Positions 6,081 to 34,074 of a stretch of DNA of 64,000 bases are shown here, one piece after another. Source of the stretch: a virus. Made by a program: the position numbers and the translations under genes. Position 1 is the first letter of the stretch; every line of letters starts with the position of its first letter. Location of the stretch: the IMG/VR virus record IMGVR_UViG_3300038454_000106, positions 37,698-101,697 of that record. The stretch is one strand, 5' to 3'. The notes below the pieces were generated by a model. It made no database searches and was not told the DNA's origin. It was given only the letters and a program-made list of their open reading frames with translations.

Positions 6081-6116
6081 TCTCGGTCCGCGAGGGAAGC
6101 TTGAGTAGACCGTCCT

Positions 6117-7352: not shown

Positions 7353-8261
7353 ATGGCCGGCAACGGCAAGCACAAGCAGCCCGTGGACGCGCCGAGGACC
7401 AACGTCTTTTGGTGCGACCCGCACCAACTCGTGATCGTCGGGCTCGACACCAGCGATACGGAGGAGCATCCACTCTGGGACGCACGTGGGTTCCAGGAGC
7501 TGGAGGAGTCCTTCGTCGTGAACATCCTCCGCAACGGCGTAGTCTCGACGATCACAGCCCGTTCCGTCGACGGGCAGCTCCAGGTCGTCGAGGGCCGTCG
7601 TCGCGTGCTGCATGCCCGCGAGGCACTGCGCCGGCAGATCGCCGATGGCATCCCCGAGGCCGAGCTACTCCGGATCCCAGTACGGACGATCCGGGGAGAC
7701 GATGCTCACCTCCTTGCGATGAGCCGAGTCGCCAACTCGTTTCGGCGCGAGGAGACGATCCTCGAGAAAGGCTTCCATGCTCAGCGGCTCCTCGCCATGG
7801 GCAGGTCAGAGGCCGACGTGGCGATCACCTACGGCGTGGATGAGACGACCGTCAAGGCGTGGCTGTCCCTGTTGGAGTCCGACACGAACCTCCGCAAGGC
7901 GATCATCGAGGGCAAGGTGTCGCCGTCCGCGGCCTACCGGTTGGCCCGCCTTCCGCATCCGGACCAGCGCAAGGCACTCGAGGAGCTACTGGCCAGCGGC
8001 CACGCTTCGATCCGCGAGGCGCGCCGGGTCACCGCCAAGCGCCGTGGTCACGGCGATACCGTGGGCGCACGGCGCCGGACGCTGCGAGACATGCGCGATC
8101 TCCTGCGCACGGACAAGGAGCCAGACGACTTCCAGCGCGGTGTCGTCGCGGCCCTGGATCTTGTCCTCGGCGCAGAGAGCGAGGGTCTCGATACCCGGAT
8201 CCGACGATGGACGATCGAGGCCGCCGCTCACCGCAAGCAACTGAAGGACAAGCCATCGTGA
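7353..8261 (+). CDS. parB: ParB/RepB/Spo0J-family protein
   Basis: VVEGRRR (GxxR) motif, AN..R, downstream HTH (DVAITYGVDETTVKAWL); AGGAGAGG SD. Confidence 0.8.
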   Translation: MAGNGKHKQPVDAPRTNVFWCDPHQLVIVGLDTSDTEEHPLWDARGFQELEESFVVNILRNGVVSTITARSVDGQLQVVEGRRRVLHAREALRRQIADGIPEAELLRIPVRTIRGDDAHLLAMSRVANSFRREETILEKGFHAQRLLAMGRSEADVAITYGVDETTVKAWLSLLESDTNLRKAIIEGKVSPSAAYRLARLPHPDQRKALEELLASGHASIREARRVTAKRRGHGDTVGARRRTLRDMRDLLRTDKEPDDFQRGVVAALDLVLGAESEGLDTRIRRWTIEAAAHRKQLKDKPS

Positions 8262-17835: not shown

Positions 17836-18252
17836 TCATCGCCCTCTCTTCGCCCGGGCCACCTTCCGGGCCTTGGGCTCGGCGACGGGCTCGGCGACGG
17901 GCTCGGCGAGGGTGGGCGTCGAGAGCGCCTTGCGCTGCTGGGCCGCCTTCGAGAGCGCCTTGCGCTGCTGGGCCGCCTTCCTCGGCGTGGCCGACTTCGC
18001 GTGGAGCTTCTCGCGGACCGCGGCAATGCGCTGCTCGAGGCGATCGTACTCGTCGTGCCTGTCGCCGATTCGCTCGAACTCCTTGAGCAGGTCATCCCAG
18101 GCGCCGGAGAAGTACACCGGCTCGCCGTTCGGTCCTGGTACGATGTAGTGGCTTCTCGCGGTGCTGAGCAGGCGCTGTTGCGCGTCGTAGAGCAACGCGT
18201 CGAGCCCCTCCTCGAGAGTCACGAGGTCGTCCTTCGTGAGCTTCGTCGTCAT
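17836..18252 (-). CDS. hypothetical protein with repetitive basic C-terminus
   Basis: KAAQQRKALS x2 (30-bp tandem) and EPVA-type 12-bp tandem. Confidence 0.65.
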   Translation of the reverse strand: MTTKLTKDDLVTLEEGLDALLYDAQQRLLSTARSHYIVPGPNGEPVYFSGAWDDLLKEFERIGDRHDEYDRLEQRIAAVREKLHAKSATPRKAAQQRKALSKAAQQRKALSTPTLAEPVAEPVAEPKARKVARAKRGR

Positions 18253-18269
18253 TGCTCGGCTCTCCAGAG

Positions 18270-18499
18270 CTTGTCATCGCTCATTTGTTCGATTCCCTTT
18301 CTTGCTCCCAGAATAGGAGCTGTTGCGCTCGACCAGATACTCGCGCGCCTCTCGCCGGGTCACGAAGCGAGGACACAGCGCCTCGTCGTACGGGATGCCA
18401 CTCGGATAGTCATGCGACCCTCCTCCTCGCCCTCGACGGGACACACCGACTTGTCATCGCTCATTTGTTCGATTCCTTTCTTGCTCCCAGAATAGGAGC
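18270..18499. repeat. about 50-bp direct repeat (18270-18320 and 18450-18499) containing hairpin-SD copies 1 and 2
   Basis: identical apart from one C indel; both copies include the start of an ORF reading MSDDK. Confidence 0.9.
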
Positions 18500-18520
18500 C
18501 GAGCCGTTGCAGTCTCACGC

Positions 18521-19282
18521 TCACTCGCGGGGTTCGTCTCGCGGGAGCAGCTCATGCACACGTGCGGCAAACGCCCGCTGCTCCTGCGTGATCTCGCCAA
18601 GGTACTCGAGTTGCTCCCAGAGGTAGTCGAGCGCGCGCACGTAGCCGAGGAGATCTTCGATCAGGAGCCGGTCATCGGTCGCCGGCTCGACGTGGATATC
18701 GTACTCGCGCACCGACCTCACGTAGGACGCGCGGACCTGCGCCCAACTCACGGTCCCTCTGGGCCCGACGATCGGGCCCGACCACGTCTCACTCAGCTCG
18801 CTCTCGAGCCGATCGACAGCCAAGGCGGAGATCCGCCCTAGCGGACGAGGTGCGATCACGCCCTCCCTGTTCTTTTCGCGGACGTAGAGCACGAGGCTCC
18901 TGTCCTGCTCGCGCACCTCGTGGAAGTCCGGGATCAGGCGGCACCTGACTGCGTGCCAATAGTCGGGAGACGCCAGAGGTCCACGTCCATCGTACAGCAA
19001 CTCGCGCGGATCCTCGAGCACCGTCGGAAAACATGGCACCTTGGCGAAAGGCCGGCCCCGCATCCGGGCACCGCGCAACTCGGTCTTGCCCCCACTGCTG
19101 AGCAGCGGGAGAGCCCGCTTACGGAGGAGCTTGCCACGCAGAAGCGTGGCGATCTTGTCCTCGAGCCAGCGGATCCCCTCGACGGCTTCTCGTTGCGCGG
19201 CTACGCGGTCGGGGAAATTGCCCCGTCGGATGTCCAGCTCGTGGGCAATCCCCGCGAGTAACTCAGTGATACAGGGGTTCAT
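18521..19282 (-). CDS. hypothetical protein
   Basis: 253-aa ORF. Confidence 0.6.
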   Translation of the reverse strand: MNPCITELLAGIAHELDIRRGNFPDRVAAQREAVEGIRWLEDKIATLLRGKLLRKRALPLLSSGGKTELRGARMRGRPFAKVPCFPTVLEDPRELLYDGRGPLASPDYWHAVRCRLIPDFHEVREQDRSLVLYVREKNREGVIAPRPLGRISALAVDRLESELSETWSGPIVGPRGTVSWAQVRASYVRSVREYDIHVEPATDDRLLIEDLLGYVRALDYLWEQLEYLGEITQEQRAFAARVHELLPRDEPRE

Positions 19283-19290
19283 GGGTCGGG

Positions 19291-19473
19291 TCAGTCCAAT
19301 ATGTGACGGAGCGCGGCGCAGACGTCATGAAGCGCCACGGTCGGCCGTCCAATCTCCGCCAGCGCATCCTTGACCGGACCCTCGAAGGAGACGAGCGCAC
19401 AGAGAGCCCGCTCTAGCGCTTCCCGGTCGTCATCCTCTAGCGCTTCCACGATGCGTTGCTTGCCCTTGGGCAT
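19291..19473 (-). CDS. hypothetical protein
   Basis: 60 aa, AGGAGG SD. Confidence 0.55.
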   Translation of the reverse strand: MPKGKQRIVEALEDDDREALERALCALVSFEGPVKDALAEIGRPTVALHDVCAALRHILD

Positions 19474-19499
19474 CTTGACCTCCTACGCTCGACGCGGAT

Positions 19500-19922
19500 T
19501 CAAAAGTACGACAGGATTGTGAAGGCGTGCGTGCAGGACGCCGTGGCTGAGCTGGCGCTGAACGTGCCCGAGCCCTTCGCCCCATCGACGTCGGGGTTGA
19601 CGCGGAAGGTCCAGATCGCGTGCGTGCCACCGGTCCCTGTACCGGTGAGGGTCACGGAGAGCGTGCAATCACGGCCCACGTACGAGGGCGAGAGCACACC
19701 GGTCCCGACCGAGGACGCCACCGTGTAGCCGGTGCCGCTCTTGACGATCTGGAGATCGATCGTCTGCTGAGGCACCGAGAGTGAGCAGGTGCCCTGGCCC
19801 CACGCGATCGTGGCATGCCAGGGGCCCTCTGGATGCTCGCAGAGGTACGACGTCGGAGGCTCGGAGGAAGAATCCGAGCAAGCGACAAGCGCGAGCGCGA
19901 TGGCGAGAGTGCGTGTCCTCAT
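19500..19922 (-). CDS. lipoprotein
   Basis: MRTRTLAIALALVAC lipobox, beta-rich mature part. Confidence 0.7.
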   Translation of the reverse strand: MRTRTLAIALALVACSDSSSEPPTSYLCEHPEGPWHATIAWGQGTCSLSVPQQTIDLQIVKSGTGYTVASSVGTGVLSPSYVGRDCTLSVTLTGTGTGGTHAIWTFRVNPDVDGAKGSGTFSASSATASCTHAFTILSYF

Positions 19923-19999
19923 GACAGTGTCTCGTAGGAGAGAGCATCCCACGCCTCGCAGGTGTTCGATCTGGAGTGCGAGACCTGGCTCAAGCGCGG

Positions 20000-20923
20000 T
20001 CACGGGACCTTCCCGACGGTGACACGTTCGCTACCATCGAGCGCCTCGATCCATCCCCAGGCGCCATCGGCCACCTGGTCCGCGTCTGGCCACTCACGCT
20101 TCTCGACGAGCTGCTCGATGGCTCGCTCAATGTCCGCGGCGACGATCCGACCAGACGCTGCGTCCGTGCGCCATGCGTACGCCGTATTCTCTGCGATGAT
20201 CTCCGCCCAACATGGTCTGGGCCTCGACCCTCCGAGCGCCTCCTGCTCGTCATCTGTAAGCCACTGGGACCAGTCGATCACCTCGACCCGCATGCCGGCC
20301 ATGTAGGCCTGCGTTCCAATTCTGACCGCTTCGCCGTCGATCTCCTCCCCGTCGACGACAGACCGGATTTCCCGGTACGGCCTGAAGGTGATTTCAAGAT
20401 CTGACTCGGTACCGGCGCCATCTCCGGTCCATCCGACCGCCCATTCCGGGCCGATCGCCGCCTTGACCGACCGCACGACGGCGGCACAGGCCTCGTCGTC
20501 GTTCGCGTCGACGGTGACTCCGACGATGTATCGGCCAGGCGCGCGGCGGTGACCATCCCCGATCGAGTACGGACACTTCTCGATCATCGCCTCGTCCTGG
20601 CTCTGATTCTCCGCCTCGTCCGAGGGCCAGGTTTCCTCATCCTGCGAGGGCCACCCGAGCCCCGCAGACCCATCCGTGCACGGGGTCAACGGGCGCTCGA
20701 GCGCTCGTTGCCACGCGTAGGTGGCAGCGCCGCCTGCGCCGCGCGCGACGTCGCGCGCCGGGAGATGATCACGGCTCTCGCGATAGGCGATAGCTGCGGC
20801 CTCGGCGGCCTCGGCGGCGATGGAGGCATGCCAGGGACAGGGGACCGGGCCATGGGGGCCCCTGTAGCAGTAGTCTCTAGTCACAGAATCAGAATCAGCG
20901 TTATCAGCGTTATCGATGATCAC
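20000..20923 (-). CDS. hypothetical protein
   Basis: start reassigned to GTG 20923 behind the hairpin-SD motif. Confidence 0.6.
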   Translation of the reverse strand: MIIDNADNADSDSVTRDYCYRGPHGPVPCPWHASIAAEAAEAAAIAYRESRDHLPARDVARGAGGAATYAWQRALERPLTPCTDGSAGLGWPSQDEETWPSDEAENQSQDEAMIEKCPYSIGDGHRRAPGRYIVGVTVDANDDEACAAVVRSVKAAIGPEWAVGWTGDGAGTESDLEITFRPYREIRSVVDGEEIDGEAVRIGTQAYMAGMRVEVIDWSQWLTDDEQEALGGSRPRPCWAEIIAENTAYAWRTDAASGRIVAADIERAIEQLVEKREWPDADQVADGAWGWIEALDGSERVTVGKVP

Positions 20924-20931
20924 GGGAATTT

Positions 20932-20958
20932 CCTTTCTCGCCCCCCCAGGTAGGGAGC
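20932..20958 (-). promoter_or_regulatory. hairpin-SD motif copy 3
   Basis: GCTCCC-TACCTGG-GGGGGC-GAGAAAGG-N8-GTG. Confidence 0.7.
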
Positions 20959-21012
20959 AGCCTCGTCTATCAGACTCGTGCAATGGCCATCAGAGTCCCG
21001 TCACGGGACCCG

Positions 21013-21270
21013 TCAGCGAGCGGCGATGACGTCGTCAACCGTTTCGCCAACTCGCGCGCCGCGAGCGTCGAACCAAGTCGTGACGCCAGACGGACCGCGC
21101 ACTCCGCCGGACCACGACAGGGCGCCTCCGGTGGATGGTCTGCATGCCTTGGCGTATCGCGCCGCCGCTTTCCTCGCGGCGGCGGGCGTACGGTGTCGAG
21201 ACCACTCGACAAATCCCCTATTCTGTTCCCAGACTCCAGCAGAATAGTAACTCGCGATCACGCTGGCCAT
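21013..21270 (-). CDS. hypothetical protein
   Basis: ATG 21270 follows the hairpin-SD motif. Confidence 0.6.
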   Translation of the reverse strand: MASVIASYYSAGVWEQNRGFVEWSRHRTPAAARKAAARYAKACRPSTGGALSWSGGVRGPSGVTTWFDARGARVGETVDDVIAAR

Positions 21271-21277
21271 ACTTGTT

Positions 21278-21305
21278 CTCCTTTTTCTCGCCCCCAAGTA
21301 GAGGC
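21278..21305 (-). promoter_or_regulatory. hairpin-SD motif copy 4
   Basis: GCCTC-TACTTG-GGGGC-GAGAAAAAGGAG-N7-ATG. Confidence 0.7.
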
Positions 21306-21344
21306 TCGCCTCGTTCTAGCAGACGGCTGACGGGGTCGTCATCC

Positions 21345-21512
21345 TCAGTGATGAACCGTCGGTGGGTCACTGGCCTTCCGCGTCCCCTTGATAGCTGTGA
21401 TCTGGCCGCGTCGGCGCGCGCGATCCATAGCCGCAAATGCAGCTTTGCGCCTCGAGTATGTGCGCTCGCGCATGATGACCGTGCCGTCAGAATTGTAAAA
21501 GAGGACCACCAT
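21345..21512 (-). CDS. small hypothetical protein (55 aa)
   Basis: AGGAG SD; MVVLFYNSDGTVIMRERTY...; below the ORF-track cutoff. Confidence 0.4.
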   Translation of the reverse strand: MVVLFYNSDGTVIMRERTYSRRKAAFAAMDRARRRGQITAIKGTRKASDPPTVHH

Positions 21513-21523
21513 ATCGATATCTC

Positions 21524-22219
21524 CTAGAAGACGTCGTAGTCAGCGCGGGCGACGGACGCTGCGTGCGCGTCCGCATACCCACGACGGAACGCAGCGCACC
21601 ACTCGGATTCGATCTCGTCCCAGGCGGTCTCGTCGAGGTCGAGGTCCTCGCAGATCGATCCAATTCCGACGGTGGAAATGTACGCAGCGTCGGCGCCACT
21701 GAAGGGCCATGCCCAAGTGGTCGGCTCGCCTTGGGCGACGTCCTCCGCTCGTCCAGAGTAGTCCTCCCAACCCGCCTTCTTTCCGTGGACTCGCACAGCA
21801 GCATACGAGATCTCGTCCGTCTCGTCCGTGCCGCCCCCCTCGCCCTGGTCGCCTGCGGGGAAGAGCACGTGCTCCGGCACCGGACCGAGCCACAGCTTGA
21901 ATCGCCAGACCGCGATGTCCTCGTCGGTAAGCGAGGTGGCTTCGCCCTCGTCATCGTGCCGAGTCAGGAAGAACGGGCCGTGGAGGTGGTGATAGCCACG
22001 AGCCGAGCTGGGCGCGACGTCCCGGCTGAACGGCAGATTCTTGCAGAGGGGGCCGCCCTCCTCGTCGCACCAGAGATCGACGCCATCCTCGAGCGGCACG
22101 CACTGGAGGTAGCCGTCGACGATGCTTCGCATCCCTCTCAGGGTCGGCTCGATCTCCTCGACCCTCGGCTGCTCTCCGACCCGGCACACCAGCACTCGAA
22201 TCTTCCTGTCACTCATCAT
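21524..22219 (-). CDS. DUF3846-like domain protein
   Basis: PRVEEIEPTL.GMRSIVDGYLQCV......LWCDEEG...GPFF.TR..DEGE.TSLTDEDI. Confidence 0.7.
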   Translation of the reverse strand: MMSDRKIRVLVCRVGEQPRVEEIEPTLRGMRSIVDGYLQCVPLEDGVDLWCDEEGGPLCKNLPFSRDVAPSSARGYHHLHGPFFLTRHDDEGEATSLTDEDIAVWRFKLWLGPVPEHVLFPAGDQGEGGGTDETDEISYAAVRVHGKKAGWEDYSGRAEDVAQGEPTTWAWPFSGADAAYISTVGIGSICEDLDLDETAWDEIESEWCAAFRRGYADAHAASVARADYDVF

Positions 22220-22227
22220 CGCCTTGG

Positions 22228-22251
22228 CCTTTCTCGTCCCCAAAAGGGACG
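22228..22251 (-). promoter_or_regulatory. hairpin-SD motif copy 5
   Basis: CGTCCC-TTTTG-GGGACG-AGAAAGG-N8-ATG. Confidence 0.8.
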
Positions 22252-22467
22252 CATTGACTTACTGTAAGCATACACGATCGGCGCTTCGCGCGCCACCCTT
22301 CTCACGCATGCGGGTTGCGGTCGACCTCATAGCGCCGATCGCTGCCGAGCCCTTCGGCCGTGACGTGAAGCCAGTTGATCTCGCCTTGCCCGTTGACGAC
22401 CGGCCCCGACCACTCGTCGGGCAGCGACTCGTCCAGCTCGTCGATCGCGTCGGCAGAGATCGTTCCA

Positions 22468-22689
22468 TCAGGTCCCGCTCTCCTTCAACACGACGTTGCG
22501 CATCTTGTGGGCTTCCGCGATGAGCATGCGAGCGCATGCGATCGCGTTGTCGATGTTGGCATCGAAGTCCTCAGCGCTCTCGCACGAGCCAGCGTTCTCG
22601 AGATGCTCGTTGAGGTCGTCGGCCAGTTTCTCCAAGTCACCGACGAGCGCCTGTCGCTCTTCGAGGTTCTTGCCTGTCGTCTTGCTCAC
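22468..22689 (-). CDS. hypothetical helical protein
   Basis: GGAG SD, GTG start. Confidence 0.5.
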   Translation of the reverse strand: MSKTTGKNLEERQALVGDLEKLADDLNEHLENAGSCESAEDFDANIDNAIACARMLIAEAHKMRNVVLKESGT

Positions 22690-22783
22690 GGCTTGTCTCC
22701 GAGCTTGCCAACGTCCTTGACGCAGCCCTTGTCGAGGATCTTGAACTTCCGACCGGAGTAGGTACGAACGCGCGTTGCCATGG

Positions 22784-23179
22784 CTACATGTCCTCGTCGC
22801 GCTCGCTCTGCGCGGTGAAGAGGGCGCGTTGTGCCTCGACGTCCAGCGCGCGCACAAAGCCGGCGTTGACGCCACCGAGCTTGGCGACGATCTCGCCGCC
22901 GTTCTGTCGCCAGAGGTCACAGAGGAACACAGCCGCGTGCGACGGCTCGCTCGTCATCGCCGGCTCCTCGGTGACCGCCATACGGACAGGGACATGCAGC
23001 CTGTGAGTGGCCACGTCGAGCACCAGCGGCCGCCGGTAGTCGAGCCAGAGTGCCTCCGTGTAGTGGTCCGGTGCACCGCCGGTGTTGTTGGCGATCACGA
23101 TGCGGCTGTTGTCGCTGGCGTTGGTGTGGCGGTAGTACCGGAAACCGCGACGCGTCTGACGGATCAGGTTCCAGGTCAT
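22784..23179 (-). CDS. hypothetical protein
   Basis: 131 aa, coupled to upstream gene. Confidence 0.55.
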   Translation of the reverse strand: MTWNLIRQTRRGFRYYRHTNASDNSRIVIANNTGGAPDHYTEALWLDYRRPLVLDVATHRLHVPVRMAVTEEPAMTSEPSHAAVFLCDLWRQNGGEIVAKLGGVNAGFVRALDVEAQRALFTAQSERDEDM

Positions 23180-23463
23180 AGCAGCTCTCCTTGCATCGCC
23201 TCGGTGCCGGCGTCCGTGAGGAAGGCGATCGGCCTTCCGTGTTTGCGCTCGAGAACCACGAGACCGCGGTGCACGAGATCATCCGCGGTGCGCCGCCACT
23301 CGACGGCCGCCGTGGCGTCCGCGTGCGTGCCGCCGCGTGGCGACGCGTGACCACCGGTGCGGCGCACACACCACTTGAGGAACAGCCGCAGCACGAGATC
23401 CTCGTGCCTCGTGAGCACGGTGTAGGGTCGCAGCTTGCGCGCGGCCTTCTGGCGCTTCGTCAC
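23176..23463 (-). CDS. hypothetical protein, possible winged helix
   Basis: DDLVHRGLV......AFLTDAG pattern. Confidence 0.5.
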   Translation of the reverse strand: MTKRQKAARKLRPYTVLTRHEDLVLRLFLKWCVRRTGGHASPRGGTHADATAAVEWRRTADDLVHRGLVVLERKHGRPIAFLTDAGTEAMQGELL

Positions 23464-23714
23464 GACACCATCTCCACGAAGTTGCGCCAGCAGCCATCGG
23501 GCGCGAACCCGCTCGCTCCGTTCGTGACGTCGTAGAACAAGCCCCCGCTGCGGCCGCTGTGCGTCGCGGAGAACACCGGCGTACGGACCCACACGAGCCC
23601 GTGCGTGTCGGGATGCTGCTCCAGCTCGATGCATCCGGGGGCGCGTGCCACGCCAGCGTGCTCCAGCAACTCGACCGTAGCGTGGCCGTAGATCATGCGA
23701 GGACGAGCCGTCAC
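23460..23714 (-). CDS. hypothetical protein
   Basis: GTG overlaps the stop at 23711. Confidence 0.45.
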   Translation of the reverse strand: MTARPRMIYGHATVELLEHAGVARAPGCIELEQHPDTHGLVWVRTPVFSATHSGRSGGLFYDVTNGASGFAPDGCWRNFVEMVS

Positions 23715-23978
23715 GACGACACCCCCATCACGTACTGAGCCGCGCGCCATGCAGCGTGGTTGAGCTGCCGCTGCCAGGCACCCGCGGTCGGCGACCAGCG
23801 AAAGCCGTAGCTCTTGAGCTTCGTGCGCATCGCGCGTCGCGGTGCGCTCGGCCGCTTGCGCGCGGGCCTCGGCGCGGTCGGCGGCGCGCAGCTTGCGCTC
23901 ACGCTTGCGCTCTTGCTTGGCCTCGTACGCGTCGATCCGCGCGGCGAGGGGTTTCTCTTCGGACTCGGACTCGGACAT
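23711..23978 (-). pseudogene. DUF3560-like gene with internal deletion or frameshift
   Basis: N-terminus AYEAKQERKRERKLRAADRAEARA in one frame; C-terminus RTKLKSYGFRWSPTAGAWQRQLN..A.RAA in another; junction near 23830-23845. Confidence 0.6.
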
Positions 23979-23985
23979 CGGCAAG

Positions 23986-24011
23986 CCTTTCTCGTCCCCA
24001 ACGCAGGGACG
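23986..24011 (-). promoter_or_regulatory. hairpin-SD motif copy 6
   Basis: CGTCCC-TGCGTTG-GGGACG-AGAAAGG-N7-ATG. Confidence 0.8.
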
Positions 24012-24053
24012 TCTGTGGAACGACCGGAACCTAGCTCTAGTCGTCCCTGGCGG

Positions 24054-25064
24054 TCAATCCTCGTAGCGGTATCGGGCGAGGATGCCACCGTAGATCGCGT
24101 AGATCGCGAACCCGTCGGGCTCGACGCGGATCTGTGATGCCTCCGGAAAGTCGAGGTAGGACAGCGCACCCTTGCCGCCCTTCTCCTCGAGGTCGGGGCC
24201 CGAGAACGCCACGTGCACGGAGGTCACGCTCGCCACCACGCGCACGAGGTCGCACGGGCCGCGGCCGTTCTGAACGAGCCGGAGCTTGGTGCCGACCGGG
24301 ATCCGCTTGAGGCTCGCCAGCGACGTGACGAGGTACGCGGGCGCGCGATCGTCGCTGGCTTTCTTCGTGGCGCCGCACGACGCGCCGTTGCCGTCCCGAT
24401 GGTTGTAGCTCACGACCTCGACGTGGACGTGGCACTGCTCGTTTACCGGAGGGCGTTTGTCGGTGAGCAGGCATAGCACACGCTCGATCAGCGCGGCCGG
24501 TGCGCCAAGCTTGAGCATGGCCTGGTCTTCCGTCACGGCCAACTTGGCCGTCCACGCGTGGTCGCCCGTCGAGCCCTCGCCGTCGATCTGGAGATAGCTC
24601 GGATCTTTGCCATGGTGCGCGGTGCCAAGAAGCGTCGCGAGGCGCTTGGCGGTCACTAGCGTATTGGCGCGCAACGTCTCACGCTCGGACAGCGCGGAGA
24701 CGCACGCCTCGTACACGCGGAGATAGTCGGGAAGGAATCGAGCCTTGATGTCGGCCGCGATACGGCGACCGCCCTTATCGACCGAGGCATTGATGGCAGG
24801 CGGAGTCTCGTCGACGCCGTAGTCACGCGGCAGAGTGACGCCACGCGCCGAACGCGCCGGATCCTGCGGGTACGTGCCGCGCACGGCAACACGACGCTCG
24901 CGCACGAGGATCTCGAACCAAAGCGCCGCTCCGTCGCCACGCTTGATGTCGAAGGTGAACGGGTAATCGCTGGTCTCGAGTCGCCAGCCGAGCGCAGTGG
25001 CGATCTCCTGTGCGAGTTCCATCGCGAACGTGGACGTGATCTCGGGCTTGTCAGAATCAGACAT
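24054..25064 (-). CDS. hypothetical protein (probably two domains)
   Basis: ATG 25064 behind the motif; long ORF with GC3-rich codons. Confidence 0.7.
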   Translation of the reverse strand: MSDSDKPEITSTFAMELAQEIATALGWRLETSDYPFTFDIKRGDGAALWFEILVRERRVAVRGTYPQDPARSARGVTLPRDYGVDETPPAINASVDKGGRRIAADIKARFLPDYLRVYEACVSALSERETLRANTLVTAKRLATLLGTAHHGKDPSYLQIDGEGSTGDHAWTAKLAVTEDQAMLKLGAPAALIERVLCLLTDKRPPVNEQCHVHVEVVSYNHRDGNGASCGATKKASDDRAPAYLVTSLASLKRIPVGTKLRLVQNGRGPCDLVRVVASVTSVHVAFSGPDLEEKGGKGALSYLDFPEASQIRVEPDGFAIYAIYGGILARYRYED

Positions 25065-25072
25065 CGGACGTT

Positions 25073-25098
25073 TCTTTCTCGTCCCCAAGACAGGGACG
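25073..25098 (-). promoter_or_regulatory. hairpin-SD motif copy 7
   Basis: CGTCCC-TGTCTTG-GGGACG-AGAAAGA-N8-ATG. Confidence 0.8.
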
Positions 25099-25133
25099 CG
25101 GTGTGTGTTGGTTGAGACGACTATCGAACGCTG

Positions 25134-25310
25134 CTATTCATTGGGCATCAACGCGAGCGCGGCACGCTTGGCGTCGAGAGCTTGCTTCACCTCCTTGGCG
25201 TAGTCGCCGAGCCCGTCGCGCTCGGCACAGCGGAGGTCCGTCTCATGGTCGGCGATCTCCGCTTCGAGCAGGGCGCGAGCCGTATAGCGCATGCGAGGCG
25301 TGTAGGCCAT
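25134..25310 (-). CDS. hypothetical protein
   Basis: GGAG SD, 58 aa. Confidence 0.5.
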   Translation of the reverse strand: MAYTPRMRYTARALLEAEIADHETDLRCAERDGLGDYAKEVKQALDAKRAALALMPNE

Positions 25311-25312
25311 GA

Positions 25313-25573
25313 CTAGGACTCCGGGGCGCCCTTGATCACAGCGCCCTTGCCGAAGTGGTCGACGAGCGCAAAGCCGGCCCAGATCTTCGCGTCGTCGTTC
25401 CACACGGCGACGACGGCGGCGAAGCCACGCATGGCATAGGCCCGATGGTGCGAGTAGATCTCGGTGAGCATCACGTCGGGAACGTAGACGGTGACGGGCG
25501 CCGCTGGCGGGTCGGCGTCGCCGATGTACGCGGCCACGAGCGGAACGTGGACGCGAGCCTTGGGCCTCCGCAT
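25313..25573 (-). CDS. hypothetical protein
   Basis: GGAGGAGG SD, 86 aa. Confidence 0.55.
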   Translation of the reverse strand: MRRPKARVHVPLVAAYIGDADPPAAPVTVYVPDVMLTEIYSHHRAYAMRGFAAVVAVWNDDAKIWAGFALVDHFGKGAVIKGAPES

Positions 25574-25574
25574 G

Positions 25575-26165
25575 TCAGCCCTCCTCCGTCGACGAGCGCC
25601 ACGGCTCCCACGTGTGGATCGCCGGCCCGGGAACGTGCTCCGACACCATGCGCATCACAGCGACCTCACCGTGACCAGCGAGGCACCCGGTGCACGTCCG
25701 CACCGCGCCCGCGTTCGTGGTCCACTCCCTGATCTCGTCGTGCTTGCGCTCGGTGCGGCACGCGTCGCAGCGGAGCCAGTACAAGCGATGCGCATGCTCA
25801 ATCGCAGCGGCCTCGGCCTCTGCCGAGGTGTCGTAGCCCATCGCAGTGCAGCTGAGGCTGAGTCGGATCCGTTCTTCGGGATCGCCGTCGCCGTCGCCGG
25901 GACCGATACGGAGCATCGCGTACTCCCACCCGCTCGCGTGCGGCAGGATGATCGCCGTGCCGAATGCCTCGCCACGCACAAGGCGGGTGCGATCGAGCCC
26001 CGCCGCGAGATTGACCAGGATGCGAGCCACGCTGGCGACGGCCTCGGCCTCGGTCGCGCCGGTGCCCTCGACGGCTCCCACAACGGCGCACCAGTGGAGG
26101 ATGCGACCACGAGGATCCTTGACGTTGAACGTGCGGACGGGAACGCGAGCATTCTTGTCAGCCAT
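25575..26165 (-). CDS. hypothetical protein with C-terminal CxxC pair
   Basis: ATG 26165 behind the motif; CDAC...CTGC. Confidence 0.6.
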   Translation of the reverse strand: MADKNARVPVRTFNVKDPRGRILHWCAVVGAVEGTGATEAEAVASVARILVNLAAGLDRTRLVRGEAFGTAIILPHASGWEYAMLRIGPGDGDGDPEERIRLSLSCTAMGYDTSAEAEAAAIEHAHRLYWLRCDACRTERKHDEIREWTTNAGAVRTCTGCLAGHGEVAVMRMVSEHVPGPAIHTWEPWRSSTEEG

Positions 26166-26174
26166 GGGAGCGAG

Positions 26175-26199
26175 CCTTTCTAGTCCCCAAGATAGGGAC
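26175..26199 (-). promoter_or_regulatory. hairpin-SD motif copy 8
   Basis: GTCCC-TATCTTG-GGGAC-TAGAAAGG-N9-ATG. Confidence 0.8.
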
Positions 26200-26212
26200 G
26201 CGGTGTGTTGGT

Positions 26213-26247
26213 GGAAGGAAGGGGGCCCGCCACCGTGGGCGGGCCCC
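26213..26247 (-). terminator. putative intrinsic terminator
   Basis: GC-rich stem GGGGCCCGCC/GGCGGGCCCC followed by pyrimidine run TTCCTTCC, just after the stop of 26258-28240. Confidence 0.55.
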
Positions 26248-26257
26248 GGAGGGCGAG

Positions 26258-28240
26258 CTAGGCGGACTGAGCCGCGCTGGTGCCGGGATAGGCGGGGTAG
26301 AGCGCGCGGCCGTTGTCGTCGACGACGCACTCCACGTTGTTCGGAGATGACCAGTGGATCTCACCGGTCGCGGTCTTGATGCACACACGGGGGCCCCACT
26401 GGCCGACATCGGCGCGCAGCACGACACCCTCGGTCCCGAGCGGCACCTTGCGGCCGCGAACGACGCGCACGAGCCGACCCTTACGGATGTCGAGGCTTGC
26501 ATCCGTGCGGCGCTCGGTCGCGATGGCCAGGGGGACACCGTCAACCATCGTCGCGGGAACCGACGACACAACCGGAGCGGAGGCAATGGTGCTCGTCACG
26601 GAGCGCGCCGGACGACGAGGACCGCGCTCGGTCGGGTTGATGACGACGCGCTCCACGGGAACGGCGACCGGAACGGGGCTCGGAGCCGGCGCCTCGACGG
26701 CGACCGTCGCCGCCGAGACGTCGCTGATCGCCTCCGGGATCGCGTCGGACGTCGCGACGGGCATCGCGTCGGACACCGCACCCTCGGCGCGCAGATCATC
26801 CCAGATACCGGCGAAGCGGATCGCCTCGGGTGACAGGGTGGGCGCGATCTCCTCGATGGCGGCCCGGACCGTGGACCGAAGGAGCGCCACGTGCGCATCG
26901 CCGAGCAACGCGGCGAAGCCCTGCGCGCGCTCGAGTACGACCTTCATGCGCTCATCGAGGCCGAGCGCGATCTTGTCACTGATCGGCTTGCCCGACGTCG
27001 CGGCCGCGTCGCGTGCCTCGCCATAGGCGACGAGGACATCGCGCGCCTCGTCGACGAGCGAAGCGACGAGTCCCTCGCGGAGTTGCTGACTCGTCGCGAT
27101 AGGGAGCGCGGGGAGGATCCACGAACCACCCCACCCCTGGCCCTTGAGAGCGGTGCAGAGCCGCTCGGCTTGTATCGCACGCTCGTGGCGCACGTAGTAG
27201 CTACCGGGCCCATAGCCGATGCCGGCCATGCGCTCGCGCATGATCTGGCCAAGCCACGCGGTGACATCCCCCGCGGCGAATTCCTCCGCCTCGCGGCGCG
27301 CCTCGTAGCGCGCGCGGAGTTGCGCGGCAAGCGAGGCGAGGTGCGCATTCAGCCCGACGTCCACGGTCAATCGCTCGTCGCGATCCAGCGTGGCCACCAT
27401 GGCGACGGAGCCGAACGAGTCGCCGACACCCTTGCCCGTCTGGAGATCGTCCACGCCGCCGATATTCCACTTGGCGATCCAGCCACGCTGCTCGCGAGTC
27501 TGGCCATCGGCCTCGACGGCGCGTGCCACGAAACCATCGTGATTGATGGCCGCCATGATGGCTCCCGCTTGCGCGCGAGCAGTCTTGGCCTCCGGGGCCC
27601 ATGCTGCGGGGAGTCCCGCAGACACGAGCGCGGCCTGGATCTGGCCCCGCGTGCGCTTACCGCGGCCGGACCACCCGACGAGCGCGCCATCGCGCACCTT
27701 GCTGGCGCCCGCGACGATGTCACCGTTGGTGAGCGTCGGAGCACGCGTACCCTGCGCCGGCGCGGTCAGTTGCGCGTTGCGCGCGGCATCCGCGTAGCGC
27801 GTCGCCTCGCCACGCTGGGCCACAACCGCGGTGTTGTAGCCAGCCACGGGGTTGACGTCGGCGCGCGCCACGCCACCGCGCACGAGATCACGCTGTGCGT
27901 GAAGCCGCTGGCCTTCCGCCGTGGCGGTACCGAGCGCGTCGCCGATGCTCGCCGTCGAGGAACCCGGGATCGGGGCCGGGGCCACCGACTCCTGCGCCGC
28001 GCGCTGCACGTTGCGTGCGGCGATCGCCGCGTTGCTGGCGAGCCGCGTTTGCGCATGCGCCGGGAGCGCGACCGGAGAGGGCGGCACCGGGGCCGGGGTC
28101 GGCGCCGGGGCCGGCGCGACGGGGGCCAGAGCCGGAGCCGGGCGCCCCAGCGCAGGGGCGCGAGTCACCGCGGTGCGCGCAGGGAGAGGATCCAGCTCGA
28201 GGGCGGCGAAGCGAGCGGCAGTGTCGTCGGTGGCGGACAT
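26258..28240 (-). CDS. large multidomain hypothetical protein with C-terminal SH3-like domain
   Basis: 660 aa; N-terminal RFAALELD, Pro/Ala linkers, C-terminal GRLVRVVRGRKVPLGTEGVV...RVCIKT..GE.HW....NVE. Confidence 0.75.
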   Translation of the reverse strand: MSATDDTAARFAALELDPLPARTAVTRAPALGRPAPALAPVAPAPAPTPAPVPPSPVALPAHAQTRLASNAAIAARNVQRAAQESVAPAPIPGSSTASIGDALGTATAEGQRLHAQRDLVRGGVARADVNPVAGYNTAVVAQRGEATRYADAARNAQLTAPAQGTRAPTLTNGDIVAGASKVRDGALVGWSGRGKRTRGQIQAALVSAGLPAAWAPEAKTARAQAGAIMAAINHDGFVARAVEADGQTREQRGWIAKWNIGGVDDLQTGKGVGDSFGSVAMVATLDRDERLTVDVGLNAHLASLAAQLRARYEARREAEEFAAGDVTAWLGQIMRERMAGIGYGPGSYYVRHERAIQAERLCTALKGQGWGGSWILPALPIATSQQLREGLVASLVDEARDVLVAYGEARDAAATSGKPISDKIALGLDERMKVVLERAQGFAALLGDAHVALLRSTVRAAIEEIAPTLSPEAIRFAGIWDDLRAEGAVSDAMPVATSDAIPEAISDVSAATVAVEAPAPSPVPVAVPVERVVINPTERGPRRPARSVTSTIASAPVVSSVPATMVDGVPLAIATERRTDASLDIRKGRLVRVVRGRKVPLGTEGVVLRADVGQWGPRVCIKTATGEIHWSSPNNVECVVDDNGRALYPAYPGTSAAQSA

Positions 28241-28248
28241 GGGACGGA

Positions 28249-28273
28249 CCTTTCTTGTCCCCAGATAGGGACA
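28249..28273 (-). promoter_or_regulatory. hairpin-SD motif copy 9
   Basis: TGTCCC-TATCTG-GGGACA-AGAAAGG-N8-ATG. Confidence 0.8.
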
Positions 28274-28341
28274 GAGACTTACGGTGTCGGGATGGCGGGC
28301 ACAGTGCAGAGCCCGGCTAGGGTTACGGCTAGGGTTACGAG

Positions 28342-28647
28342 TTACGGTTCACCATCGGGATCACCGTACGACGACTCGATCTCCGCGTCGCACTCCTCGA
28401 CGAGCGCGACCGTCTCTCCGTCGCGCTCGACGGTGAGAGACTCGCCCTCACACTCGAGGGCTGGACCTTCGTCGTACGTGGCGCACTCGAGCGCCATGCC
28501 TGCATGGTAGGCGGCCGTCGCGCACCACGCACAAAGGCACGTATCGGTGCCCTTGACGACATAGAGAATCGTGTCGCCTCCCGCGCTCGTGTACTGCGGG
28601 AGCGAGCCATCGGCGCGGAGTAACTGGCGAGTGACAGGGAAGGTCAC
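28342..28647 (-). CDS. hypothetical Cys-containing phage protein
   Basis: GG.TILY...D.CLC..CA...Y.EGP.L.C...C..EIES.YGD; GTG coupled to upstream stop. Confidence 0.6.
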   Translation of the reverse strand: MTFPVTRQLLRADGSLPQYTSAGGDTILYVVKGTDTCLCAWCATAAYHAGMALECATYDEGPALECEGESLTVERDGETVALVEECDAEIESSYGDPDGEP

Positions 28648-29075
28648 GACGCACCCCCAGTCGCGCGGTCGACGGTGCCAGGGACGATCCGGTACCCGTT
28701 CGCGGCGGCCCAGTCGTACGCGTCCGGCGCGGCGACGTGGTACGAGACGGCCTGCTCCGACTCGGTGTCGACGAGGACGATCTGGCCCTCCACGACGTTC
28801 GCAGAGCACGTGCGGGGCTGGCGGACCACGTGCGCGTAGTGGGCACGCACGACGTCGCGGATATGCACGTCGGCGCGCACCGCGGGCGCCTTGTCGTCGA
28901 GGCGGAAGTACGTCGGCCTGTGGCACGCGACGCACTGACCGACCACCACGGCAACGTCGTCGTCGGAGCGGTAGCGCTCCTCGACGTGATAGAGCCAGAT
29001 CGTCCCCCCGCACTCACAACAGGGGCCGCAGTCGGTCACGTAACGACCGTCGTGGAGAAAATGGCAGCGCGTCAC
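28644..29075 (-). CDS. hypothetical zinc-ribbon protein
   Basis: CCEC...CVAC; GTG coupled to upstream stop. Confidence 0.55.
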   Translation of the reverse strand: MTRCHFLHDGRYVTDCGPCCECGGTIWLYHVEERYRSDDDVAVVVGQCVACHRPTYFRLDDKAPAVRADVHIRDVVRAHYAHVVRQPRTCSANVVEGQIVLVDTESEQAVSYHVAAPDAYDWAAANGYRIVPGTVDRATGGAS

Positions 29076-29296
29076 GACGCCGTCTCCCGGACCGGGAAGA
29101 GCCGGTATCTGCCCGCACCCTCGATCGCCCACACCAGGCCAGCGGTGATCGCGCGGTGTACCGACTGGTACCCGTACATCAAGCTGCCGTGCGGTCCTAC
29201 GACGGATGCCGCAGCCTTCGCCGTGCAGCCCGGGTGGGCTGCGACGTACTGCGCAATCGCGGCCATACGTGGCCCAACGCGTCTCTTGGCGGACAT
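29072..29296 (-). CDS. small winged-helix-like protein
   Basis: YVAAHPGCT...Y.SVHRAI.AGLV....G.YRL; ATG behind the motif. Confidence 0.6.
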   Translation of the reverse strand: MSAKRRVGPRMAAIAQYVAAHPGCTAKAAASVVGPHGSLMYGYQSVHRAITAGLVWAIEGAGRYRLFPVRETAS

Positions 29297-29304
29297 GGAA
29301 TCAG

Positions 29305-29328
29305 CCTTTCTTGCCCCCAGATAGGGGC
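29305..29328 (-). promoter_or_regulatory. hairpin-SD motif copy 10
   Basis: GCCCC-TATCTG-GGGGC-AAGAAAGG-N8-ATG. Confidence 0.8.
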
Positions 29329-29389: not shown

Positions 29390-29640
29390 AGTTCCGAAGT
29401 TATTTAGCCAACCGTAAACTTTCTTCTAAGTTGTTGAAATCATTGACGTATTCCCATCCGAAGGGGATCGTAAGTATGCGAAATCATTAAGTCATTGGAA
29501 TTCACGTACTTAGGGGATCGGAGTCCCATCCGACTCCCTTCGGATGGGAGTCTAGGGAATCTCCTGATCGGGAGTGCGCCCAATCCAAGGAACTCCCGAT
29601 CGGGAGTGCGTCCGATTTGCGTTGACAAACGGAGCGAGCT
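29390..29640. promoter_or_regulatory. AT-rich non-coding control region with nested inverted repeats (candidate origin, att or operator region)
   Basis: AT-rich 29395-29512; TCCCATCCGAAGGG/CCCTTCGGATGGGA IR; TAAGTATGCGAA/TTCACGTACTTA imperfect IR; perfect palindrome ACTCCCGATCGGGAGT at 29592-29607. Confidence 0.6.
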
Positions 29641-32387: not shown

Positions 32388-33250
32388 TCAGCGACGCTAG
32401 ATGGCCTAGACGACACCGGGCCATTGCTGCCGTCGTCGGCGATCTGGACCGGCACCTCACCGTAGAGCACGTCATCGTCGCGATCGGACCTGTGTGCCAT
32501 GGTGCGATTCCGCACGTCGGGCCGCAACGCGTCAAACGCCTTGCGCAGGGCGACCTCTGCGAGAATCACAGCCCGCAGCTCGCCCTCGACGGGGAGCCAG
32601 CTCTCGTGCCCGACGCCATCGAAGCCCGCACAGTACTCCACCACGACGTCACGATTGTTGATCACCACGCGATAGGAACCAGCGACCTTACCACCCTCGT
32701 AGGTGAACCGGATCACGCGACGCTTGTTATCGGCGCGACGCTTGACCTCGGCGTTGATGACGTTGAATCGAGCCTCGGCCTCCCGCTGGCGTTCGGCCTC
32801 CCGCCGGCGTTTCTCGAGCTGCCAGCTCGTGGCGAACTCACGCAGGTTGCGCTCGATAGTCTCGAGATACGCGCTGAGCCGGTGGCCTGAGTCCATGACA
32901 GCGTCGATCGCCTGCATGAGCACCGTCATGCGCTGGAGCGCCTGCTCGGTCTGGGCCTCGACCTGTGCGTCGTGGAGCGCCTGGTAGACGGTGTGGTGGG
33001 ATTGCACGACGCGCGCGCTGAGCCCAGCGGCCGTACACGCCATCTCGGCGGCCTCGGTGAGCAGCCGGCTCGATGAGCGAACCGTGTCTCCACGGCCCGT
33101 CGAGTATCTCCAGCCCTCGTGTGCGATCGCGCCGATCAGGTCATGGAGAACCTCTGGATCGAGGCCTGGCACGTAGTCTCTGAATCGCTCGAAGAGCGTT
33201 TGCTCGAACGGATCGCTCGTTGGCTTGATTTCCACGTCGGACTCGCTCAT
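32384..33250 (-). CDS. hypothetical coiled-coil protein
   Basis: ATG 33250 overlaps the methylase stop. Confidence 0.65.
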   Translation of the reverse strand: MSESDVEIKPTSDPFEQTLFERFRDYVPGLDPEVLHDLIGAIAHEGWRYSTGRGDTVRSSSRLLTEAAEMACTAAGLSARVVQSHHTVYQALHDAQVEAQTEQALQRMTVLMQAIDAVMDSGHRLSAYLETIERNLREFATSWQLEKRRREAERQREAEARFNVINAEVKRRADNKRRVIRFTYEGGKVAGSYRVVINNRDVVVEYCAGFDGVGHESWLPVEGELRAVILAEVALRKAFDALRPDVRNRTMAHRSDRDDDVLYGEVPVQIADDGSNGPVSSRPSSVAE

Positions 33251-34074
33251 GGCTCCCTCCCGATGTTGCTGGTGATGAGTAGGCACTCAGCCGCCTGCCG
33301 GCGCGTGCTATCTGCCGCGATGGTGCGAGACTCGAAGATGGGCTCGACGGTGGCCCACCGGTAGAGCCCCCGGATGCGAGGCGTGTCCGCGTTGCTCGTG
33401 ACGACGGCAGCGCCGCGACGTGCGGCGCTCCACAAGACCCGCGCGAGCTGCTCCTGATCGTCGGGACCGAACCCCTCCGCCGTGTAGCCATCGAAGCCCT
33501 CGTCATAGGGTGGATCGGCGTAGATGACCGGGGGAGCGACGCGAGTGATCTCCCGAGCGATGACATCGTTGGCGAGCGCGTGGCCGATGGCAGCGTTCTG
33601 CAGCGCGCTCGCCGCGGCCTGGAACGCGTCGAGGCTAGCGAGATACTGGCGACCGTCGCCATAGGGCACGTTGAACTCGCCGGCCTGGTTGACCCGCCAG
33701 AGGCCGTTGAAGGCAAACGCGTTGAGGTAGAAGAACCGAGCCGCATCGTCGAGCGTCCGTGCGCCATACTTGACCAGACTGCGCTCCTTCTCGTACTGGT
33801 CACGTGCGCTGCGCGTCCAGATCCGCTCGGAGGCGAGCGTGTGGAGAGCCAGTGGCGAGCGACAGACCCATCGCCAGGCATTGACGACGTCGGAGCAGGC
33901 ATCGGCGAGCAGCATCCGGCGCTCCGGCATCGCCAAGGCAACGGCGCCGGCCCCGAGAAATGGCTCGACATAGAGGGCGCCTGGGCGGGCCTCGAGCGCC
34001 CGCTCGAGGAGCGGGACGATCGTCGAGACCAGACGACGTTTGCCGCCCGGCCATCGGAAGATGGGCTCGGCCAT
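33247..34074 (-). CDS. dam: Dam-like N6-adenine DNA methyltransferase (D12 class)
   Basis: FRWPGGK, EPFLGAGAV, FNGLWRVN..G.FNVPYG, YADPPY, VTSN. Confidence 0.9.
   Translation of the reverse strand: MAEPIFRWPGGKRRLVSTIVPLLERALEARPGALYVEPFLGAGAVALAMPERRMLLADACSDVVNAWRWVCRSPLALHTLASERIWTRSARDQYEKERSLVKYGARTLDDAARFFYLNAFAFNGLWRVNQAGEFNVPYGDGRQYLASLDAFQAAASALQNAAIGHALANDVIAREITRVAPPVIYADPPYDEGFDGYTAEGFGPDDQEQLARVLWSAARRGAAVVTSNADTPRIRGLYRWATVEPIFESRTIAADSTRRQAAECLLITSNIGREP

Follow-up and report, generated by a model that had tools for sequence, protein, structure and literature searches.

Repeats placed at gene starts are known from mycobacteriophages and from T4-type phages. In cluster K mycobacteriophages, start-associated sequences (SAS) are 13-bp repeats that contain a Shine-Dalgarno sequence; they all point the same way, lie about 3 to 8 nucleotides (nt) before the start codons of unrelated gene families, and are restricted to the non-structural half of the genome (PMC3203893). 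About half of the SAS are preceded by inverted repeats (ESAS) with imperfect 17-bp arms and a 4- to 13-bp spacer; the departures between these arms do not support RNA pairing, and the authors favored DNA-binding proteins (PMC3203893). In 2025, with 188 genomes surveyed, the function of SAS and ESAS was still open (PMC12699233). In T4-type phages, the PeSL (promoter-early stem-loop) elements consist of a sigma-70 promoter with a stem-loop inside or across it, a Shine-Dalgarno sequence, and a start codon (PMC2839356), and they mediate exchange between ORFan cassettes (PMC2839356, PMC4122927). Here we analyze bases 37698 to 101697 of the 101,697-bp IMG/VR virus record IMGVR_UViG_3300038454_000106, which is graded 95% complete. 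In this stretch of 64 kb, referred to below as the window, a short hairpin fused to a ribosome-binding site is repeated ten times within an 11-kb block of genes. Positions follow the numbering of the window unless they are marked as record coordinates.

A first-pass annotation of the window had likened this module to the mycobacteriophage SAS, and the analogy is apt in several respects. Both are short asymmetric repeats that include the ribosome-binding purines, stand a few nucleotides before start codons, have a single orientation, occupy the non-structural part of the genome, and precede unrelated genes. All copies found here are on the - strand, 7 to 11 nt before a start codon, and have unrelated ORFans downstream; a further likeness is that SAS are present in 11 to 19 copies per genome and are rare outside their phage group. 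However, the module is not an SAS by sequence, and its arms covary, unlike those of ESAS. The SAS consensus GGGATAGGAGCCC, with up to two departures allowed, had 4 matches in the window, where 1.5 were expected, and 0 of these were at copies of the module. The arms of the module measure 6 to 7 nt, are always present, and change in an RNA-compatible manner, whereas the 17-bp arms of ESAS show no RNA-type compensation. PeSL resemble the module in being composite intergenic cassettes with a stem-loop that end in a Shine-Dalgarno sequence and a start codon, are repeated between small ORFans of one region, and have been proposed as points of homologous exchange, to which a pair of identical copies described below would correspond. 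They differ from it in their length (about 100 bp), strong sigma-70 promoter, and variable stems, whereas the module consists of a conserved stem and a purine tract and has no promoter consensus. The stem-loop, Shine-Dalgarno sequence, and start codon between ORFans are thus shared with PeSL, but a consensus scan detected no sigma-70-type -35/-10 elements at any copy. SAS/ESAS and PeSL are the closest known elements and, judged by its sequence, the module belongs to neither.

A hairpin and ribosome site at ten gene starts

All ten sites of the first-pass annotation were present on the - strand, and together they span positions 18282 to 29328 (Table 1). The module is about 35 nt long and has a constant order, namely, the 5' arm G-Y-Y-C-C-U, a pyrimidine-rich loop of 3 to 7 nt, the 3' arm G-G-G-R-R-C, the purine tract (R)AGAAAGG, 7 to 11 nt, and a start codon, which is ATG in nine of the ten copies and GTG in the remaining one. 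The G+C stem comprises 6 to 7 bp. In the DNA, the 5' arm reads G-Y-Y-C-C-T in all copies but one, which ends in C, and A/G/T-AGAAAGG adjoins the 3' arm directly; AGAAAGA and AGAAAAAGG occur as variants of AGAAAGG. The stem haplotypes are those listed before: GTCCCT/GGGGAC in five copies, GCTCCT/GGGAGC in two, and GCCCCT/GGGGGC, GCCTCT/GGGGGC, and GCTCCC/GGGGGC. The description of the purine tract as RAGAAAGG holds for most copies, but copy 3 (26175) has T in place of R, copy 4 (25073) has AGAAAGA, and copy 7 (21278) has GAGAAAAAGG at 21280-21289. The spacing to the start codon, previously put at 7 to 12 nt, was roughly right, but the measured range is 7 to 11 nt.

Table 1. Positions of the module copies and of other features of the window (aa, amino acids; ORF, open reading frame; bits, score in the covariance model)
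Feature	Position	Strand	Arm start; start codon	5' arm/loop/3' arm + purine tract + spacing	Downstream gene or description	Bits
Copy 1	29294-29328	-	29328; ATG 29296	GCCCCT/ATCT/GGGGGC + AAGAAAGG + 8 nt	74-aa protein, predicted to be winged-helix-like	32.4
Copy 2	28238-28272	-	28272; ATG 28240	GTCCCT/ATCT/GGGGAC + AAGAAAGG + 8 nt	660-aa ORFan	
Copy 3	26163-26199	-	26199; ATG 26165	GTCCCT/ATCTT/GGGGAC + TAGAAAGG + 9 nt	196-aa ORFan	39.5
Copy 4	25062-25097	-	25097; ATG 25064	GTCCCT/GTCTT/GGGGAC + GAGAAAGA + 8 nt	336-aa ORFan	
Copy 5	23976-24010	-	24010; ATG 23978	GTCCCT/GCGTT/GGGGAC + GAGAAAGG + 7 nt	172-aa ORFan	
Copy 6	22217-22250	-	22250; ATG 22219	GTCCCT/TTT/GGGGAC + GAGAAAGG + 8 nt	231-aa DUF3846 protein	
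Copy 7	21268-21305	-	21305; ATG 21270	GCCTCT/ACTT/GGGGGC (two U-G pairs) + GAGAAAAAGG + 9 nt	85-aa ORF	18.3
Copy 8	20921-20958	-	20958; GTG 20923	GCTCCC/TACCTGG/GGGGGC (or 7-bp stem with loop ACCT) + GAGAAAGG + 8 nt	307-aa ORFan	21.2
Copy 9	18462-18499	-	18499; ATG 18464	GCTCCT/ATTCT/GGGAGC + AAGAAAGG + 10 nt	34-codon ORF (MSDDK...)	
Copy 10	18282-18320	-	18320; ATG 18284	Same as copy 9 over 50 nt except for one extra G	11-codon ORF	
Strongest post-stop hairpin	26222-26247	-			10-bp G+C stem that directly follows the stop of the 660-aa gene and lies about 20 nt upstream of copy 3	
AT-rich gap	29390-29640	-			Third-position G+C about 0.38-0.40, directly upstream of copy 1	
Common 53-residue segment	26783-26941 and 18079-18222				Domain-sized mosaic piece within the block	
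Dam methylase gene	33247-34074				Among the recognizable genes	

The module is real and non-random. (i) RAGAAAGG occurs 11 times in the window, compared with 1.6 ± 1.4 times in shuffled sequences, which is a seven-fold excess. (ii) When a descriptor of the hairpin followed by AGAAA was run over the whole 101,697-bp contig, it matched just the ten copies on the - strand and one unrelated site on the + strand (7757-7771). (iii) A descriptor of the hairpin without the purine tract matched 26 sites, where shuffles gave 12 ± 3.7; most of the surplus is made up by the ten copies, so there are no "naked" copies. (iv) The same family was recovered by an independent repeat search. (v) A covariance model was built from five copies of equal length, and the remaining copies were aligned by Infernal. 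The model recovered the other five copies with E values of 5e-7 to 2e-3 (32.6 to 18.3 bits); the next-best match was a non-member at 17.7 bits, and the best match in the other 38 kb of the contig reached 10.2 bits. In agreement with the first-pass annotation, which had seen no motif outside the 11-kb block, the descriptors and the covariance model yielded no further copy in the 101.7-kb contig. The + strand site is a different 6-bp hairpin (CGAGGA/TCCTCG; 7757-7779) that is followed by AGAAAGG, 5 nt, and ATG; it scored 10.5 bits in the model, lies out of frame inside a ParB-like ORF (7353-8261), and is probably due to chance.

Pairing of the arms and the level at which the module acts

The alignment analyzed for covariation comprised the ten copies, nine of which are distinct, as aligned by Infernal. 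Pairing of the stem was complete (54 of 54 cells). Among the nine distinct copies, U-A and C-G occur five and four times at pair 2, and C-G and U-A eight times and once at pair 3, which amounts to two compensatory pairs; pair 4 has C-G eight times and U-G once, and the closing pair is invariably U-G. The covariation score was 0.296, compared with 0.167 ± 0.035 in shuffles, and was equalled in 1 of 500 of them. When the partner was slid by 1 to 3 columns, pairing was 39 to 66% and the number of double changes was zero. All one-sided changes in the stem are C to U opposite G, so that a wobble pair is kept on the - (sense) strand, with A-C on the + strand. The isolated hairpins had a mean predicted energy of -10.2 kcal/mol in the sense strand versus -7.6 kcal/mol in the complement, and the sense hairpin was the better one in all ten copies (copy 7, -8.5 versus -3.4 kcal/mol). 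Furthermore, loops range from 3 to 7 nt in length at a constant distance between stem and start; an RNA hairpin can readily accommodate this, whereas a dimeric protein on duplex DNA could hardly do so. The first-pass annotation had proposed a structured cis-element and a covariance model as a check on it; the complete pairing with its two compensatory pairs, the strand asymmetry, and the variable loop length all support that proposal. Searches of Rfam gave no match at the gathering thresholds and otherwise two chance-level matches on the + strand only.

We hold with moderate confidence that the module is a cis-acting RNA leader, copied before unrelated genes, in which a hairpin boundary is joined to a polypurine ribosome site and which probably also acts as a 5' stabilizer after processing. 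This reading builds on the ten copies and their confinement to one block, the strand-specific compensated pairing, the constant geometry of the starts, the unrelated genes downstream, and the duplication of 50 nt described below. It is also favored by the accessibility of the starts: the predicted unpaired probability between -18 and +6 is higher for the ten starts than for 115 other called starts (0.52 versus 0.41; Mann-Whitney p = 0.005), although this effect is modest. Transcription of the block would begin in the AT-rich gap at 29390-29640 and run leftwards from 29.3 to 17.8 kb, giving a single long transcript or a small number of them, and the module would be the standard ribosome-loading site wherever a gene is not coupled to the previous stop. 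AGAAAGG would pair with a 16S rRNA tail of the type ...CCUUUCU-3', and the hairpin would shut off the upstream sequence, so that the purine tract and the start codon stay unpaired. Endonucleolytic cuts would fall in the single-stranded and often CA-rich spacer upstream; the hairpin and the bound ribosome would then shield the new 5' end, and the variable hairpin after the previous stop would shield the 3' end of that gene. Local duplication or recombination would have brought the module to unrelated genes.

Known 5' stabilizers are the STAB-SD of Bacillus thuringiensis cryIIIA and the 5' hairpin of ompA. In these, as in the leader of katG (PMC2358910), the downstream mRNA is protected by a purine tract that is complementary to the 16S tail and lies close to a processed 5' end, by a hairpin at the 5' terminus, or by both. 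In mycobacteria, the furA-katG transcript is cut in single-stranded RNA, and the katG part is stabilized by a polypurine sequence together with translation initiation (PMC2358910); RNase E, in turn, cuts 5' of C in C-rich intergenic RNA (PMC10641625). These last two cases provide single-gene precedents in high-G+C bacteria for the proposed mechanism. The leaders of katG, cryIIIA, and ompA each serve a single gene, whereas the module forms a family of ten copies for which we infer stabilization.

A number of points weigh against an RNA leader. (i) There are just five stem haplotypes and two compensatory events, permutation of the arms among haplotypes gave p = 0.1, the covariation alignment was fitted to the structure, and the copies are kin. 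(ii) In a context of 60 nt, folding is ordinary (z from +0.3 to -1.9), and the hairpin is missing from the minimum-energy fold of 3 of the 10 copies; thermodynamics by itself would not have picked out the module. (iii) The comparison of start accessibility rests on crude gene calls. (iv) Copies 3, 9, and 10 (26175, 18475, and 18296) read TANNNT followed by GGG, like a -10 box with a discriminator. (v) The strong hairpin at 26222-26247, if it is a terminator, would need a promoter behind it. (vi) The first gene of the block has a product that, from its predicted winged-helix-like structure, could bind DNA palindromes.

The last three points belong to an alternative in which the module acts at the DNA level. 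It would then be either a PeSL-like composite, with the loop as the -10 box, GGG as the discriminator, and the purine before AGAAAGG as the transcription start, or a repeated, stoperator-like operator through which a repressor silences the block in a lysogen. In PeSL the stem-loops lie within or over the promoter and are followed by the Shine-Dalgarno sequence and ATG (PMC2839356). Three of the loops fit TANNNT plus GGG, the stem is followed by a purine in 9 of the 10 copies, about 7 nt past the hexamer, and a terminator-like hairpin stands ahead of copy 3; the element is also temperate-like, with integrases and a Cro/CI-type helix-turn-helix (HTH) protein, and its block opens with the putative winged-helix protein. 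However, with the register set by the invariant T before GGG, 7 of the 10 copies lack the essential A at -11, and the consensus scan gave no sigma-70-type site at any copy. No sigma factor and no T7-like or YonO-like polymerase was found in the proteins scanned: for a single-subunit or YonO-like enzyme there was no DxDGD motif in a plausible context and no Pfam match, and the sole match to Sigma70_r4 is the HTH of a 91-aa Cro/CI-type protein. Action on DNA would also leave the compensatory arm changes, the restriction of the asymmetry to U-G, and a half-site spacing that varies by up to 4 bp unexplained. We consider this alternative fairly unlikely, and the -10 box or operator that the first-pass annotation had kept in reserve is disfavored; copies 3, 9, and 10 may be weak promoters.

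Stoperators are 13-bp non-palindromic sites of fixed length at which a repressor binds double-stranded DNA. In mycobacteriophage L5 and cluster A, many such asymmetric sites lie in short intergenic gaps and are oriented with transcription (PMC3203893). The module shares with them the number and asymmetry of the sites, the short gaps, the orientation, and the temperate character of the element, but differs in being a hairpin with variable loop length and compensatory changes. A dimeric operator or stoperator on double-stranded DNA, with fixed length and specific half-sites, fits the module poorly, since the arm spacing is 3 to 7 nt and the half-sites change in a complementary manner. A -10 box of the actinobacterial form TANNNT was not supported, as it fits only 3 of the 10 loops. 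An intrinsic terminator was discarded because the stem is followed by RAGAAAGG and not by a run of U, and a terminator scan listed none of the copies. Also set aside were an alternative hairpin that pairs the 3' arm with GTCC before the ATG, which by eye is not conserved across the stem variants; a pseudoknot between the loop and AGA, which by reasoning is sterically implausible; and readings as attC, REP, or boxB, which size, position, and loop composition rule out.

A second alternative retains the RNA level and makes the hairpin the recognition site of a dedicated protein of the element or of the host. Such a protein might repress or activate translation, or be an endoribonuclease specific for the hairpin; it would switch the ten cistrons together or cut the transcript at the stem bases. 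The sequence is narrowly constrained beyond pairing, with G at pair 1, C-G at pairs 4 and 5, an invariant AGAAA, the closing U-G of every distinct copy, and a U before the 3' arm in all ten copies, where a purely structural clamp would drift more freely. The stem lies 0 to 1 nt from the ribosome site, and copies confined to one block would be co-regulated. Recent common descent of the copies accounts equally well for the narrow range of sequences, however, and no RNA-binding or RNase family was recognized in the proteins scanned, which is a weak argument as most of them are ORFans. Overall, recognition by a dedicated protein seems to us rather improbable. The more specific version, in which the hairpin is the handle of an unrecognized RNA-binding or hairpin-cutting protein of the element itself that cuts or gates a long early transcript at ten points, has in our judgment a slim chance of being correct.

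Genes behind the copies and the gaps between them

The block contains about 21 genes; where the motif is absent, the gene mostly overlaps the stop of the one before it (ATGA/GTGA) or has an ordinary GGAG-type site. In the rest of the contig, ribosome sites are mostly GGAG, AGGAG, AAGGAG, and AGGAGG, and it is mainly in the module that AGAAAGG occurs with no AGG after it; the tract thus belongs to the module. According to frame plots of third-position G+C and ORF maps, eight copies precede well-supported genes, copy 10 doing so by way of a leader ORF. The start of the 660-aa gene agrees with the homologues P0002 and P0003, which align from M1, and that of the 336-aa gene is identical in the public protein collection (P0016). 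The public call for the 74-aa protein, encoded by the first gene of the block (29072-29296), begins at the internal Met11 and not at the ATG of the motif; an Atlas structure search suggested, as a lead only, that this protein resembles winged-helix regulators of the PerC/MarR/FaeA type. The 85-aa ORF behind copy 7 has a weak coding signal. Apart from DUF3846, no Pfam or PHROG family was detected among the block proteins. They are not paralogues except for the common segment of 53 residues (45% identity), which corresponds to residues 434-486 of the 660-aa protein and residues 11-58 of a 138-aa protein.

The first-pass annotation had pointed to similar N termini behind the copies. Several genes do open alike, with related codons (Ser/Ala-Asp...Asp-Lys; e.g., GAC AAG) in front of unrelated proteins, but the two MSDDK copies are one duplication of 50 nt and should be counted once. 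The start codon assigned to the copy at 18296 is present as well, but this ATG opens just an 11-codon ORF (MSDDKLWRAEQ*; 18249-18284, - strand), the real gene being that of the 138-aa protein (17836-18252). The TGA of the small ORF overlaps the ATG of this gene at 18252 in an ATGA junction, which is a classic coupling junction and is what would result from an initiation module transplanted before an existing gene.

The gaps between the previous stop and the stem measure 36 to 70 nt. In about half of them, a separate and non-conserved G+C hairpin follows just after the upstream stop, and the stretch between this hairpin and the motif is often rich in C and A, with ACACAC(C) in copies 1, 3, and 4 and CACAGAC in copy 5. 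The AT-rich gap ahead of copy 1 contains two near-identical GATC-centered palindromes (about 29592-29608 and 29562-29578) of the type CTCCCGATCGGGAG, as well as a longer nested inverted repeat (about 29519-29553). From these sequence features, this gap, rather than the hairpins, is likely to be the promoter/operator region of the block. In the gap ahead of copy 2 (28281-28344), the sequence past the TAA of gene 28342-28647 contains CGGCTAGGGTTA (+ strand, 28314-28339), a tandem repeat of 12 nt without mismatches; another TAA in the same frame lies 21 codons downstream of the first and 8 nt before the stem of copy 2.

Spread of the copies and place of the element

Similarity is highest between neighboring copies. 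Copies 9 and 10 (18475/18296), which lie 179 bp apart, match perfectly over a stretch of 50 nt that includes the hairpin, the ribosome site, and five codons; copies 3 and 4 (26175/25073) share 94% identity over 33 nt; copies 1 and 2 (29305/28249) share 85% over 40 nt, ATGTCCGCC included; and copies 7 and 8 (21278/20932) have a common upstream box. This pattern fits a module that would move by local duplication and homologous exchange. In addition, P0017, the only homologue of the 336-aa protein, matches just its C-terminal half (24054-24590; 56% identity), the N-terminal half of P0017 being unrelated, from which it follows that genes in the block are mosaic; P0017 is encoded on the same 43.9-kb foreign contig as P0002, the homologue of the 660-aa protein. 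The idea of a homology handle for cassette shuffling, also put forward in the first pass, gains support that is indirect and comes from the identical pair, the similar flanks of neighbors, and the unrelated genes downstream.

The likeness of neighbors, and first codons such as GAC AAG that are common to the copies, would equally be expected of a functionless relic, i.e., a leftover gene-start head that was copied with cassette duplications and illegitimate recombination and whose palindromy was kept by template-switch repair. However, the genes downstream are unrelated, and the module was thus kept while its surroundings diverged. All ten copies retain full pairing and the exact geometry of the start codon, and template switching would also erase U-G pairs, yet these persist. 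We therefore regard a relic as very unlikely.

The G+C content is about 65% along the whole window. Its recognizable genes encode a serine recombinase, PolA fused to UDG, a Ser/Thr kinase, and a ParB-like HTH protein; the Dam methylase and a dNMP kinase; an SNF2 helicase, a PD-(D/E)XK nuclease, beta-helix proteins, an eCIS-core protein, and an acyl-CoA dehydrogenase; and a tyrosine integrase and the Cro/CI-type HTH protein. Terminase, portal, and capsid families of Pfam were not found in the proteins scanned, and 0 of the 35 proteins from 34 to 64 kb (34081-63999) matched a PHROG; the viral label thus rests on IMG/VR and CheckV. To judge from sequence comparison, the element is distant from known phages. 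A megablast search with 12 kb gave no nucleotide match to cultured phages, and in tblastn searches against phages PolA had remote matches with just 21 to 27% identity to phage polymerases, while the 660-aa and 336-aa proteins had none. The protein P0005 had no match among plasmids. Protein-seeded scans of IMG/VR, JGI metagenomes, and GTDB genomes yielded no relatives, and a profile of the 660-aa family had no match in 401 genomes of the Actinomycetota, the phylum of the Cryobacterium genome G001. Homologues were found only in Logan, ENA, and NCBI records, namely, P0002 (62%) and P0003 (59%) for the 660-aa protein and P0017 (56%) for the 336-aa protein. When the acyl-CoA dehydrogenase was compared with five genomes, identity to the best match was 40 to 43% in four of them, which represent four phyla, and 29% in Cryobacterium; these values single out no host phylum.

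The motif was also sought beyond the contig, with two patterns over IMG/VR, one over JGI metagenomes, and one over GTDB representatives (185,579 species). Only single matches were obtained, on unrelated contigs of 39 to 68% G+C that lacked both a second copy and any similarity in their proteins. Within the limits of these collections, the main variant is not a host-wide repeat in any sampled genome, which argues against a motif that is equally frequent in the host. The record further contains two TIGR-type arrays (record coordinates about 5900-6200 and 10900-11125) with units of about 36 nt and the repeats GCGAGCC and GTG(N)CCC. Guides aimed at the motif were considered and rejected, as no guide spacer matches its conserved core. 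The array repeat GAGCGAGCC matches only the spacer between ribosome site and ATG of one copy, which is at chance level, and the likeness of the repeat-B variant GCGTCCCCC to the 5' flank and arm of several copies (GCGTCCCT) extends over 7 nt only.

More than a decade after their description, the mode of action of the gene-start repeats SAS/ESAS and PeSL is unproven (PMC3203893, PMC12699233). What is new in the module relative to these elements is the presence of compensated stem changes that are sensible only on the mRNA strand; the weight of this observation is limited by its origin from one uncultured singleton element. If the hairpin were the handle of a dedicated protein, it would represent the natural equivalent of the hairpin-endoribonuclease "insulators" engineered to make the genes of an operon independent, and SAS-like phage repeats would act on RNA. 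If, as we favor, the module is an RNA leader, it would be a clean case of a modular "plug-in" gene start at the RNA level, through which a virus would express newly acquired genes with no need to evolve a ribosome site anew for each of them.

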